Positions 3,073-46,242 of a stretch of DNA of 64,000 nt are shown here, in pieces. Each line of letters opens with the position of its first letter. Position 1 is the first letter of the stretch. The translations under genes were made by a program, and so were the position numbers. The notes under the pieces are model-generated. The model was given only the letters and a program-made list of their open reading frames with translations, was not told the origin of the DNA and did not search any database. The DNA is taken from positions 186,001 to 250,000 of the forward strand of contig JBEWZL010000030.1 in the NCBI GenBank assembly GCA_045837725.1. The letters run 5' to 3'. The stretch comes from Vermamoeba vermiformis (Eukaryota).

Positions 3073-4475
3073 ATGGCACAAAGACAACCCCCTCCACCAG
3101 TACCCCCACCACGCAGACAGCCCAGTGTCCCTCAACAACAACAGCATGTGAGTGACGATCCAGAAGTGCAGGAGATGTTAGCGTCAGGCTGGGTAGTGGC
3201 TCCGAAGAAGCCTACCGTAGCCGTGCAGAACAACGTGCCTTCGATCTTTTCTAACAGACCGGATGTTAGTTATTTATGGCAAGGCAAAGAGGAGGAACAA
3301 CCTCCAGATCAACCTGAAGAGCAGCTGGTGGATGTAGATCTTTCTCGCGAGAAAGTTGGAACTGTCTACACTATTGGTCCCGAGTTAGGAAGGTAAATTA
3401 TCTGAACACTACCCCACACGTAACATGCATTGTTGATTTTATATTATGAATCGATTTAACTTGACAAGTGATATTAATATTTAAATTTGATATTCAAAAA
3501 AAATCTAAATTTCCAAGCCACTACACCGCTGCTACATGCGTGATTAATAACACTGCCGCAGAGGATTGGGCTCTATTGTCAAGTCCGGCAAGGCCAAGGC
3601 AGGCAATGGCGATGTAGCAATTAAGGTCGTCTCTTCCGCCACCGCGGGCTTCATCACCGCAGAACAACGCAAACAACACGCCGAGATCTTGCAAGAGGCC
3701 TCGCAACACGCGCACATTGTCAAGCTGTTGCAGAAGTTTGACGCCAATGACGCAGTGCACCTCGTGCTCGAGAAGATGCACGGCGAAGTGTTCCGTCAAG
3801 TCACCAAGCAAGCAGCTGATTACACCGAGAAAGACGCGTGCAGCATCATCAAGCAAGTGCTCGAGGCCGTGCAGTTCTTGCACAGCAAACAAGTCCTGCA
3901 CGGTGACATCACCCCCGAGAACGTGTTGGCGGTGAGTGACAAGCCAGACAATGTCAAGTTGTGCGGCTTCACTCTGGCCCGACGCATGCCCGCGAGTGGC
4001 GAGATGATGTGCGCGGAAGAATTCAAAGCCCCTGAATCACTCATGCGCCAACCTGTCACCTTGCAGTCTGACATGTGGTCACTCGGTTGTCTCGCGTACT
4101 TTGCGTGAGTGACAGCACAGCACAGCAGTGTGATAGTCGATACTAACACCCTCTCTCAGATTGAGCGGCTATCCTCCCTTTGCAGACAAGAACACCATCA
4201 AGCTGCAGGCCAGCATTCGCAAGGGTCAGTTCCAATTCCCTGACGCTGATTGGGCTGCTGTCTCTGCTGAAGGTACGTAGTGCTGAAATCTCTTGCGTGA
4301 CACCTGACACTGATGACACGTGTCAGCCAAGGACTTCATCAAGAAGTTGTTAGTGCTCGATCCCAAGCAACGTCTCACTGCCCAACAAGCCCTCGAGCAC
4401 GCGTGGATCAAGAGCGGTGGCAAGCCCAACAAGCTCGCCAACTTCAAGAAGCACGCCGTGAATCACTTGCATTAG
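3073..4475 (+). CDS. CaMK-group kinase-like protein, probable pseudokinase, Pro-rich N-terminus; exons ~3073-3392, 3562-4104, 4160-4272, 4327-4475
   Basis: [69 protein letters not shown]. Confidence 0.85.
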
Positions 4476-4621
4476 TGCTGGCACGTGGCATGCATTTGCA
4501 GTGTACTCGACCGAACACGTGTAGAGCAGAGTCGAGCACTGTAACATTAACTAATACACTGTGTTTATATCGACGCTGTTTATTGTGCCTACTATTGTCG
4601 TTACTACATTACTATGTACAA

Positions 4622-5596
4622 TTACCGCACACGAGCACCGTTAGAGTTCATATTGGCGCGCAACAAGTACGCCACGTACAGCACGAGTGGCACCACCGCT
4701 TGCAACACGCGCCACTGCACGCTGTGCGGGAGTGCTGCGCCAATGCCACTCAGCAGCGCTTGACAGTACTGCAGCACCGCGAACTGACCCGTCAACAGGC
4801 GGAATAGCGTGCTCTGCGTCCAGGCACGTGTCGCGTGTTGCGCATCAGTGACGTCATCGACCAGGGCCAGTGGCACGGTGATGAAGGTGAGCAGTGCAAA
4901 CAGCGCGGCGAGGAGCCAGGCCACGGTGTTGGTGCTCTTGACTGGCGTGCTGAACAGCGTGGCAATCACGTGCCAGAGCGAGTGCTCGCGTGCCACTGGT
5001 GCGTGGTGCTCAATGACCGCGAGATACATGACGTGCATGAGATAGAGCGCGAGGTGTGCTGCGTCAGTGATCACGCCGTTGTCGAGCAGCACGGTGAGCA
5101 CTGTGACACCTGTCACACATGTCAACAGCACGCCCAGACACGTGGCCTCGCTGACGGTGAGGGACTGATTGAACAGCGACACTGCGAGGGCAATCACCAG
5201 CACGTAGCACAGCACCGAGGCTATTAATAGCACCAGGGCCAGGGACTGACGCGCGTGCTCGCGTATCTGTTGTGCCCAGTGCGCGGAGAGTTGCGTGACA
5301 GCAGCGAGCAGCACCACCGCCTGACCGAGCCACAGCACGGGTGTGAGGGCGTGGATCAGATCTGCCACCAAGTAGCACAACCAGTGCGGTGCGAGCAACA
5401 GGGCCGCGAGTGAGGTGAGCAGTGCAGTGAGGGGTGCAGTGAGTGCGTAGTGCAGTGCAAACAGGACGAGGGCGGGAGTGGCACCGAGACACCACGCAGT
5501 GAGCGGTGCTGGGCCCAAGAATAGCGCTGTCAGTGCGCCGAGTACGGACCAGAGGATCCACAGCACTGGGGTGAGTAGGGTTGTTGGGAAACACAT
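4622..5596 (-). CDS. ICE2-like (SERINC superfamily) multi-pass ER membrane protein, single coding exon
   Basis: Very hydrophobic ORF. SEATCLGVLLTC...DNGVITDAAHLALYL and the C-terminal QWRVLQAVVPLVLY resemble fungal Ice2 blocks recalled from memory. First ATG is at 5596. Confidence 0.6.
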   Translation of the reverse strand: MCFPTTLLTPVLWILWSVLGALTALFLGPAPLTAWCLGATPALVLFALHYALTAPLTALLTSLAALLLAPHWLCYLVADLIHALTPVLWLGQAVVLLAAVTQLSAHWAQQIREHARQSLALVLLIASVLCYVLVIALAVSLFNQSLTVSEATCLGVLLTCVTGVTVLTVLLDNGVITDAAHLALYLMHVMYLAVIEHHAPVAREHSLWHVIATLFSTPVKSTNTVAWLLAALFALLTFITVPLALVDDVTDAQHATRAWTQSTLFRLLTGQFAVLQYCQALLSGIGAALPHSVQWRVLQAVVPLVLYVAYLLRANMNSNGARVR

Positions 5597-44341: not shown

Positions 44342-44399
44342 ATATAAATAGCCGTCCCATGTAATAGTTGCAACACTTTATTGGACAGTAACACAGCTG

Positions 44400-46242
44400 T
44401 TAATAGACCGAGGACTCAGCACCTGCGTTGTGTCGACACCACACGATGAGATTGGCTGCCATAATAATTAATATATATGTTGAGTCCGTGCGCTACATTA
44501 TGTATCTTACCTCTGAAGCCACTCGTGAGAGGTCGAGTGCCGTGACGATGACTGCCCAAGTGGATGACTGCACGACCGAGCGCTGGCTGCCATTCACCTG
44601 TCACTCGTTAGCGGACAACACTTTGACACGTGTCAATCATTGACTCACCTGTGGGCTCTTCGAAATAGACTGACGCGCCCTCAAATGTGCGGCCCAGACA
44701 GACATTGAGTGTGACGTCACTGAGGTCTTGGTGCACTGTAACAAGAGCGTTATATTCACCGACACTAGTCATCACATTCACTATGACCACGCACCATCGA
44801 GCTTGACGTCTTTGCCGAGCTCATATTCGACCATGAAGGCGTGGTGTTGATTCAACTGACTGCCCTGCACTTCTGGGAATAGAGCAGCCGCGAGTGGTCT
44901 GATGTATCGGATCATTAAGAGGTGCATCATGTCTCTGAAGGCCTCAGACATGTGATCAAAGATCAGACCGTAGTTGTTCATTGAATTCGGTCGTTGAATG
45001 GGTCCTCCACTCTGCTTGTAGTGATCTGTTTCGACTAACAACTCCCTACATATAATTAACATCACTCCTCTAGCGTACGTTGGCTGGCCAGTGACTTACT
45101 GACAGAATTGAGGCGTGAACAAGACGAATTCAAACACACCAGGGCAGATCTCTTTCATCAACTTGCGCAACTCATCAGCACTGTTCGAGTGCAGGGCCCT
45201 GATGAACTGTGCATCAAAATGTTCCTATTTAATCATCTGTTAGTGCAGTTCGACCAGTGACACGTGTCATACATCGCTGAGTTCGGTCACGTGACGCTGT
45301 TTAGGTTTGTACATGGCACATTGAGTGGGGGCGCGCTGTTTCTTCTTCGCTTTCTCGAGTGCATTGATGCGTTCAGATCTGAGCGCGTGATCGGCCTTCG
45401 TCTTGGCTTGAATAGCCTCCGTGGTCCACTGTGGAGGTCAATAGGCGAACAAGCACACTACTCACACGTACCGGTGTGAATGGCGTGTGGGGCACTAGTC
45501 TCTCGTGCAACAGTTGTGCGGTCGTGTTCTGTTTGTTGAGCAGTGCGAGGGTCAGTGCGTCATTGCCTGCTCAGAGCGGTCAGTCACGGTGTCACGTGTC
45601 ACAGTGCCGCACCATCATTGTCCTGCGCGTCTATCTTCGCTCCTCGTCGCAGCAGCTCTTCCACGACATCATCGTAGCCGCGCTCAGCTGCAAAGTGCAG
45701 TGGAGTTCTGCCCCCCGAGAGGTAGACAGGGATGTGATTGCTGACGTAGTAGACTGCATCTGTGGACTGGCGAGCGGATCAGCACTGGCATTAGTGAGGG
45801 GGTGAGGACTTACTGTCCTATTGATGTCTGCACCATGATCTAACAGCGCTTTAACGCAGTCAATGTAGCCTTCATTCGTGGCAAAATGCAGTGGTGTCAA
45901 ACTGAAGATCCAGCATCAGTACACTACTCTTGTTTAGATAGGACACGTACCCATCGTCATCGGCTATATTAGGGTCTGCCTTATTAATAATCAACGAGAT
46001 TAAATCATCACTGCCATTAAGAGCTGCGATATGAAGTGGAGTGAAGCCTAAATTAATTAAAGAGCATTCAGCACATTATTAAAGCGTAAATATGGAATCA
46101 ACTTATAGATTCTGTTACTGTTACTACCTCGCTCATTTTTTTCATTCAGATCCACGTTATTATTTATGAATGTTTTCACCGCTTCCGCATCATTTCTCAT
46201 TAACGCCTTAAATATATCGTCTGTCGATTGTTGGACTTCCAT
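44400..46242 (-). CDS. Ankyrin-repeat plus OGFOD2-like Fe(II)/2-oxoglutarate dioxygenase (multi-exon)
   Basis: TPLHIAA and TPLHFATNEGY ankyrins; RPNSMNNYGLI, HHAFMVEY, HQDLSDVTLNVCLGRTFEG, HLGSHRHGTRPLTSGFRANLIVWCR. Confidence 0.85.

Follow-up and report, generated by a model that had tools for sequence, protein, structure and literature searches.

The DNA analysed here is a 64-kb stretch (positions 186,001 to 250,000 of contig JBEWZL010000030.1), referred to as the window, and the feature under study is a perfect 12-bp palindrome, TGACACGTGTCA, which occurs in it as 10 exact copies, all within genes. This is gene-dense eukaryotic DNA with short GT..AG introns. The genes identified with Pfam encode a protein kinase, Oxa1, a RAD54-like SNF2 ATPase, SPT16, eIF2A, a CHD remodeller, a GCKIII-type kinase, CDC50, a thioredoxin/ERp29 protein, an IMD protein, TTC5, an MFS transporter, an ankyrin/OGFOD2-like protein, CNOT1 and FtsH. 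The named best relatives of an SPT16 exon are amoebozoan (Arcella intermedia 60%, Physarum 57%, Balamuthia 54%; a further protein gave 76%), and judged from these relatives the host is probably a Tubulinea-like amoebozoan.

Exons and introns were predicted with a parser made for this analysis and trained on the long open reading frames (ORFs) of the window that had Pfam support. Because the parser made errors (TTC5 was fused with the MFS gene, and some long 'introns' were mis-joined), counting was limited to predicted introns of at most 180 bases. There are 94 of these, with 6,336 bases or 10% of the window. The exon class is the predicted coding sequence (38,752 bases), and the remaining 18,912 bases are referred to as other DNA. 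Six RNA-supported GT..AG/CT..AC joints served as a check on the gene models. Five were matched, either exactly (30953-31076, 31358-31417, 31590-31653 and 35422-35477) or within 2 bases (32412), and at the sixth the acceptor in the model is 5 bases off (35068 predicted, compared with 35073). Three further junctions with weak support (2-5 reads) also agree with the models, and the nine-intron SPT16 model aligns to protein P0001 across residues 13-1062. The CDC50 intron carrying the palindrome is homology-supported, since the exons on either side match successive profile positions (72-229 and 232-283). In the kinase gene the exon after the motif intron corresponds to Pkinase positions 237-263 and the exon before the previous intron to positions 10-188, and in the MFS gene the exon after intron 43193-43235 matches MFS_1 positions 128-177.

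Frequency and distribution of the palindrome

TGACACGTGTCA is the most frequent 12-mer of the window. In 100 dinucleotide-preserving shuffles it occurred on average 0.01 times, and 10 copies were not reached in any of them. When up to 2 mismatches were allowed, 27 sites were found, namely the 10 exact copies plus 7 sites with a single mismatch and 10 with two, compared to 4.03 expected (sd 2.06, shuffle maximum 11). A preliminary description of the window had listed the 10 exact copies and at least 8 near-variants; every one of its positions for the exact copies was confirmed, and the sites with one and two mismatches bear out the second figure. Markov models of orders 0 to 5 predict 0.004 to 0.15 exact copies in the window. 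At orders 6 and 7 the expectation rises to 0.9 and 4.1, because a 64-kb model learns the ten copies themselves; with these removed from the training set it is 0.07 and 0.13, and the enrichment thus survives a high-order background. A maximum-order word expectation was discarded as circular, and the Markov test of orders 0-7 was preferred. The exact and one-mismatch copies are given in Table 1.

Table 1. Exact and one-mismatch copies of the palindrome in the window. Strand of the gene in brackets.
Match	Position	Location	Remark
exact	4314..4325	intron 4273-4326 (+), protein-kinase gene	last 12 bases but one of predicted intron; motif plus G forms acceptor
exact	11016..11027	3' end of predicted intron 11015-11056 (-), RAD54-like SNF2 gene	in sense, C before and G after
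exact	11332..11343	exon of RAD54-like SNF2 gene (-)	read T-R-V; start of expanded linker between helicase lobes
exact	33925..33936	intron 33890-33944 (+), CDC50 gene	8 bases before acceptor; homology-supported intron
exact	41287..41298	predicted intron 41265-41327 (+), TTC5-like gene	
exact	41545..41556	predicted intron 41429-41580 (+), TTC5-like gene	
exact	41797..41808	exon 41690-41929 (+), TTC5-like gene	read D-T-C
exact	43207..43218	predicted 43-nt intron 43193-43235 (+), MFS transporter gene	14 bases after donor
exact	44624..44635	predicted intron 44598-44648 (-), ankyrin/OGFOD2-like gene	intron with 8-base boundary direct repeat
exact	45258..45269	predicted intron 45207-45272 (-), ankyrin/OGFOD2-like gene	starts at intron base 4, overlaps donor
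one mismatch (central G to C)	5104..5115	coding under either of two competing gene models	model uncertain
one mismatch (last base)	23205..23216	exon of CHD gene (+)	
one mismatch (sense position 10, T to A)	38233..38244	predicted intron 38202-38256 (-), IMD-domain gene	
one mismatch (position 10)	41211..41222	exon of TTC5-like gene	
one mismatch (position 5, A to G)	42953..42964	predicted intron 42915-42967 (+), MFS gene	3 bases before acceptor
one mismatch (position 10, T to A)	44005..44016	predicted intron 43976-44017 (+), MFS gene	forms acceptor
one mismatch (sense position 10, T to A)	45590..45601	predicted intron 45567-45612 (-)	

Eight of the exact copies lie in introns, two in exons and none in other DNA, as the preliminary description had stated and the gene models reproduce. 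The corresponding numbers are 12, 5 and 0 with up to one mismatch, and 19, 7 and 1 with up to two. Exact copies reach a density of 1.26 per kb in introns and 0.05 per kb in exons, and other DNA has none. The bias towards introns is not explained by composition, because the GC content of introns (0.43) and of other non-coding DNA (0.40) is alike; at equal density across non-coding DNA, the chance of finding all eight non-exonic copies in introns is 1.6e-5. None of the 17 sites with at most one mismatch falls in the 18.9 kb outside gene bodies, which includes the promoters. The copies are not near the predicted start codons but about 280 to 1,850 bases from them, and their host genes are functionally unrelated. 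There is also regional clustering: between 40.7 and 45.7 kb, in three adjacent genes on both strands, 8 of 22 introns carry the motif, compared to 4 of 72 elsewhere (p=0.00075).

The flanks of the copies were compared over 24 bases in a set of 25 exact copies (10 from the window and 15 from the metagenome loci described below), with random intron segments as the null. Mean pairwise identity was 8.1 of 24, compared to 7.3 for the null, and the best pair matched at 14 of 24, below the null 95th percentile of 15, so that no pair stands out. The slight excess arises because T is weakly favoured before TGACACGTGTCA and A after it. A repeat search of the window found no longer repeat family that takes in the copies, and no terminal inverted repeats. 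The flanks are unrelated, in agreement with the preliminary description, and a decayed long repeat is excluded.

Introns carrying TGACACGTGTCA with at most one mismatch (12 of the 94) form a separate class. Their GC content outside the motif and the splice sites is 0.50, compared to 0.42 in the others (p=0.008), yet they are no longer than these (median 53.5 and 55 bases). They cluster in neighbouring genes, and they have longer direct repeats of the AG/GT type at their boundaries. Repeats of at least 3 bases (up to 8) are found in 8 of 22 motif introns and 7 of 97 others when window and metagenome loci are taken together (p=0.001), and in 4 of 12 and 6 of 82 in the window by itself (p=0.02). 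The motif followed by G is the acceptor in three window introns and ends 3 bases before the acceptor in a fourth; it begins 11-14 bases after the donor in four, and overlaps the donor in one. Symmetric intron arms around the palindrome were looked for by eye on the window introns, and the idea was rejected.

The exonic copies sit in the middle of their exons. In coding sequence TGACACGTGTCA can be read only as x-D-T-C-H/Q or L/V/M-T-R-V-x. The 13,026 codons of the window contain three peptide sites able to encode it, of which two have the exact word, and the single such site in the 1,778 codons of the metagenome loci has it as well. Combined, three of four codable peptide sites carry TGACACGTGTCA, where 0.03 would be expected from codon usage. 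In the TTC5 exon the D-T-C residues fall within an ungapped alignment to solved TTC5 chains. Likewise, in the exon of one metagenome locus (L002) no gaps interrupt the alignment to ACX4 and glutaryl-CoA dehydrogenases at L-T-R-V, the exact copy, or at Y-D-T-C, a copy with one mismatch. Because these alignments are ungapped, the TTC5 and L002 copies must have arisen in place by substitution. At the SNF2 copy the alignment to RAD54-like chains stops at query residue 150 and restarts at 220, in the expanded linker. These data indicate that selection or drive probably acts on gene bodies, writing TGACACGTGTCA into coding sequence where the protein tolerates it, and that insertion alone would not suffice. 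As shared descent does not hold for the flanks, nor insertion for the exonic copies, either selection or some directed process must be at work on gene bodies to maintain or create the word. The term 'intragenic mark' used in the preliminary description is a fair one, since exons also carry the word where the protein allows.

Copies beyond the window

Metagenome contigs were scanned for two exact copies of TGACACGTGTCA 225-255 bases apart. This gave 37 stretches, many of them overlapping copies of one another and of several kinds, while the same scan yielded only 2 from prokaryotic genomes (596 billion bases) and 1 from viral contigs. The pattern of the window recurs in four distinct loci: L002 (overlapping L028), L010 (the same as L020), L035 and L003. 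All have short introns with GTAAG or GTACG donors and TGACACGTGTCA inside introns. None has nucleotide similarity to the window, and no orthologues are shared with it or among the four; the kinase in L010 is only a paralogue, with 33% identity. The four loci hold 15 exact copies, although each locus was chosen for one pair and only the copies past that pair are independent. Ten of the 15 are in model-predicted short introns and one is exonic (L002:4875). Three more are intronic by reading only (L002:642, L010:20 and L028:2195), and one was assigned to neither class (L002:4614).

In a DNA run of the window's own organism, contigs end or are joined exactly at copies of the motif (41299, 41536, 43207, 43219, 44644 and 44646; joint 43227 to 44624), as expected if the organism has other motif-bearing places. 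Contigs from the same run cover 30 of 30 bins of an 18-kb stretch, including all seven exact copies in it. Together with the four unrelated metagenome contigs, which share the same context, these joints show that the motif is not confined to the window, in line with the genome-wide mark proposed in the preliminary description, and its occurrence in introns is lineage-wide.

Successive copies in the window (41287-41808; 42953-43218) are spaced 258, 252 and 254 bases apart. The spacings within L010:702-1217 are 240 and 264, but that locus was selected for such spacing and only the window values are unbiased. The exonic copies at 41797 and at L002:4875 (L002:4614-4886) lie 252 and 261 bases from an intronic neighbour.

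Other stretches from the scan use the word differently. L025 is from a different eukaryote (GC 0.60) and has a repeated intron family with TGACACGTGTCA in three introns. At least five introns in L025:400-3330 share a repeated core and are flanked by direct duplications of 25-34 bases of exon sequence, for example 2742-2775 and 2849-2882 (91% identity) or 1266-1290 and 1471-1495 (100%). This looks like ongoing intron gain with unusually long duplications. L019, L037 and L040 are a single viral-listed contig of 52,339 bases in which TGACACGTGTCA recurs roughly every kb (10 in 10 kb); each copy lies in an intergenic spacer and has conserved extra flanks, and by analogy these copies may be like a phage operator or promoter element. 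In L007, L009 and L023 (GC 0.68) there are 15-16 copies per 10 kb between genes. Tandem arrays with TGACACGTGTCA in every unit were found in L001 and L011 (33 bases), L013 (30), L026 (27) and L008 (47), and the remaining stretches include AT-rich inverted-repeat elements that contain it.

Possible roles of the palindrome

The interpretation we favour, with low confidence, is that TGACACGTGTCA is a positively maintained cis-element of gene bodies which a putative dimeric factor reads as a duplex during transcription. The word would be bound as double-stranded DNA by a predicted homodimeric, sequence-specific protein, reading of the duplex being most likely because all 12 positions are symmetric. 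The putative factor might act on elongation (by slowing the polymerase, for example), on chromatin or on the recognition of short GC-rich introns, rather than as a promoter activator, and several copies in one gene would be additive. Co-transcriptional action is suggested by the avoidance of intergenic DNA and by the association with one class of intron. The repeated intergenic use of TGACACGTGTCA in the 52-kb viral contig and in GC-rich gene-dense contigs was counted in favour, since a site repeated in this way makes a protein-binding palindrome plausible. A role tied to transcription and splicing would fit the intergenic absence, the intron class, the stronger exon-side splice consensus of the motif introns and their sense asymmetry.

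The plant intron-mediated-enhancement motif, TTNGATYTG, provides a parallel. According to the accessible part of one report it works only from transcribed sequence, including exons, and its copies add up (10.1101/269852). Like TGACACGTGTCA it is a short motif over-represented in introns, also found in exons and present in several copies, and TGACACGTGTCA is likewise enriched in transcribed sequence and absent upstream. However, the plant motif is non-palindromic and promoter-proximal, whereas copies of TGACACGTGTCA are found throughout genes, at the distances from the start codons given above.

Several points weigh against a duplex-reading factor. When the 17 intronic variants with 1-2 mismatches are oriented in the sense direction, 7 mismatches are at positions 1-6 and 20 at positions 7-12 (p=0.019), and of 25 copies of TGACACGTGTCA, 16 have a T before the word but only 9 an A after it. 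A DNA-bound factor alone leaves the sense-strand asymmetry of the near-variants unexplained. Nor does duplex reading account for the longer AG/GT boundary repeats, and the absence from intergenic DNA requires the extra assumption of a gene-body-specific role. Both the binder and an effect of TGACACGTGTCA on expression are predictions from sequence. RNA reads cover none of the motif-bearing introns, the three RNA runs leaving 41-46 kb almost uncovered, and the intron, exon and other classes come from our own, partly validated gene finder. The evidence that the transcribed strand matters is modest, as the variants are few and the strand of some L002 genes is uncertain; half-sites outside full copies number 7 and 7 in the two orientations.

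More specifically, and still more tentatively, TGACACGTGTCA may be a highly iterated eukaryotic palindrome confined to gene bodies, set into short GC-rich introns and forced upon exons whose protein can tolerate it, whose 12-base duplex is recognised by a putative dedicated dimeric factor that couples transcription to intron recognition or licenses host transcripts, possibly with a preferred spacing of about 255 bases. If this were true, it would represent a new class of genome-wide intragenic signal in Amoebozoa.

It is possible, though doubtful, that the word acts in RNA. As a splicing element, its 5' half with the preceding pyrimidine would be a branch-site-like word, its 3' half followed by G would give a CAG acceptor 10 bases downstream, and elsewhere it would be an enhancer defining GC-rich, exon-like short introns. 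The 5' half could pair with the branch-site box of U2. Introns are far richer in copies than other non-coding DNA, and TGACAC is the second commonest hexamer of sense-oriented introns, with 20 occurrences, after the GTAAGT donor (28) and ahead of the branch-site hexamers. Of the 17 variants, 10 keep the 5' half intact in the sense direction and 3 the 3' half (p=0.09), and all three window cases of the position-10 variant agree in their sense orientation. The GC-rich composition of motif introns at equal length, and their stronger AG/GT boundaries, are also what such an element would lead one to expect. The A at position 3 of the motif lies 10-17 bases from the acceptor in 5 of the 12 window introns, and in three of these the motif followed by G is the acceptor; the usual branch distance in this organism is 9-21 bases, measured from the A of YTRAY to the acceptor. 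In the remaining 7 of the 12 introns its A is 26-60 bases from the acceptor, and another YTRAY is present downstream. In intron 42915-42967 the near-copy is the only branch-site-like word.

A perfect 12-base palindrome, however, has no reason in a single-stranded signal, and the motif has no fixed position, being found as early as 3 bases after the donor and as late as the acceptor. An ordinary branch word was found by reading in 10 of the 12 motif introns, the same share as in the others (65 of 78). Flank preference also differs: of 65 ordinary branch words 45 begin with C, while T precedes TGACACGTGTCA in the 16 copies already mentioned and C in 2 of 25. A branch or 3' splice-site signal would have the C-type flank and be present in most introns, but only 12 of 94 carry the motif, and the exonic copies are in mid-exon. 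A comparison may be made with G-triplets, the 3-base runs read on RNA which are intronic enhancers in small GC-rich vertebrate introns. They too are intronic words enriched in short introns of exon-like base composition, but they are not a 12-base palindrome, and no comparable writing into exons is known for them.

Intron gain is an unlikely explanation, but one that the preliminary description set aside too quickly. The motif introns would be younger, produced by a DNA-level process (an introner-like element or AG/GT insertion) with the palindrome as a conserved core in either orientation. The description was right that the flanks are unrelated; the boundary repeats, the exon-like GC content and the clustering in neighbouring genes on both strands are nonetheless what gain would predict, and the L025 introns combine TGACACGTGTCA with 25-34-base exon duplications. 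Against this, the likeness between the introns ends at the 12-mer and its immediate neighbours, and a 12-mer would not outlast neutral decay intact. There are no terminal inverted repeats, the motif introns are no longer than others, the copies in conserved coding sequence came by substitution and not insertion, and neutral insertions should reach intergenic DNA too.

In the available portions of two surveys, what identifies introners is similarity spanning the intron ends or the full intron length (10.1101/2022.06.06.494994, PMC12130899), and those of Amoebophrya carry inverted repeats, according to the accessible text of a third paper (PMC7789003). They resemble the present introns in having sequence common to introns of unrelated genes, direct repeats at the borders and a patchy, clustered distribution. 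They differ in that only 12 to 14 bases are common to the TGACACGTGTCA introns, whose flanks are barely more alike than the null, and in that the exonic copies arose in place. The border repeats here are AG/GT-like, and no inverted terminal repeats were found. Neither CACGTG nor 'palindrom' occurs in the searched passages of the two surveys, the supplements of which may list consensus sequences. The string 'amoeb' has no match in the accessible text of the 2022 preprint (10.1101/2022.06.06.494994) and 8 in that of PMC12130899, where it refers, among the passages listed (12 of 15), to the dinoflagellate Amoebophrya. A literature search for introners with palindromes or in Amoebozoa returned nothing relevant.

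It is quite improbable that the copies form an ordinary regulon, with E-box-type sites of a bHLH or bZIP dimer acting as intragenic enhancers in a compact genome. The CACGTG core with its symmetric flanks is of the E-box/G-box kind. With 58 copies, 23 of them within 40,726-45,593, it outnumbers every other 6-base palindrome in the window, and homotypic clusters extend across three adjacent genes. Such sites, however, concentrate in promoters and enhancers, and no TGACACGTGTCA site with at most one mismatch lies outside gene bodies, where the promoters are. The functional unrelatedness of the host genes, and the distance of the copies from the predicted starts, also argue against a regulon.

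A motif-directed bias of mutation, repair or methylation, akin to very-short-patch repair or the HIP1 methyltransferases, is very unlikely, despite the over-representation in both introns and exons and the central CpG. No repair system is known to read 12 bases, and a strand-blind, genome-wide bias should affect intergenic DNA. Observed/expected CpG ratios are 0.91 (exons), 0.98 (introns) and 0.93 (other DNA), and there is no sign of methylation-driven CpG loss in the window. HIP1 (GCGATCGC) of cyanobacteria is, in the accessible parts of two papers, an 8-base palindrome tied to two methyltransferases (PMC4390886, PMC13756078). As with TGACACGTGTCA, a short perfect palindrome is found there orders of magnitude above expectation, conserved amid varying surroundings and with no settled function, and TGACACGTGTCA exceeds every background model in the window and recurs in independent contigs. 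However, HIP1 is bacterial and spread over the genome, in coding and non-coding DNA alike, whereas TGACACGTGTCA is a 12-base, eukaryotic word of gene bodies, mostly of introns, with no CpG-depletion signal. The preliminary description had proposed a methylation target, a chromatin-protein site or the end point of a motif-directed mutation or repair bias. Its view of an intragenic, intron-biased word that is neither a decayed repeat nor limited to this window has held. A link to methylation is weakened by the CpG ratios, an ordinary chromatin or transcription-factor site by the lack of the intergenic copies it would lead one to expect, and a purely strand-blind mark by the asymmetry of the near-variants relative to the direction of transcription.

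An origin by chance, through base composition or as an assembly artefact is already refuted by the enrichment over shuffles and Markov models, by the same context in independent contigs from other samples and by the DNA-run contigs over seven exact copies.

TGACACGTGTCA shows the full set of defining features of none of HIP1, introners, the plant enhancement motif and intronic splicing enhancers. Nothing but primers and lists of plant promoters came up in full-text literature searches for the 12-mer and for its 10-mer and 8-mer cores, and in the accessible text of the tubulinid genome papers searched there is no 'palindrom', and in one of them no 'motif'. No description of TGACACGTGTCA as a gene-body signal was found in print, and the enrichment points to a signal not previously described. 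If functional, it would offer a strong and simple handle on a gene-body process in a poorly studied eukaryotic group, as a single 12-mer lends itself to counting, mutation, pull-down and footprinting. The word shapes even conserved coding sequence and divides the short introns of one genome into two classes, and so bears on how exon-like short introns are recognised and on whether gain accounts for intron-rich patches in a compact genome. It is also a practical marker of introns for annotation in this lineage, in which published tubulinid gene models may undercount them.

Other features of the window

The three RNA runs bear the same species label as the DNA data that best match the window but are only 95-99% alike to it (in run X21, 54 reads match at 99% or more and 2,273 at 95-99%). 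Over 30001-48000 the exons differ from the runs by 1-5%, mostly at third codon positions, and the species label therefore spans diverged strains or species.

Rfam and tRNA scans of the window gave no matches. A 3.3-kb block at 7076-10396 has no gene model and no repeats, and its ORFs have no Pfam match; it may be the transposable-element island of the preliminary description. That designation was not borne out, as there are no long repeats and the 10 ORFs taken from unannotated blocks lack transposon domains, and on these grounds a transposon origin of the blocks was rejected. An ORF at 60066-61259 (-), of 398 residues, scores strongly as host-like in codon usage, yet it matches no Pfam family, and none of the candidates scored is a homologue.

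Two further observations concern the introns as a whole. The donor GTACGT is unusually common (18 of the 94 predicted introns) and is extended six times to the 8-base palindrome GTACGTAC. Intron starts are evenly spaced in the TTC5-like gene (40834-41429; 146, 141, 144 and 164 bases) and in the MFS gene (42915-43193; 141 and 137 bases), and the regularity of this exon-plus-intron unit may stem from TPR repeat structure or from another cause.

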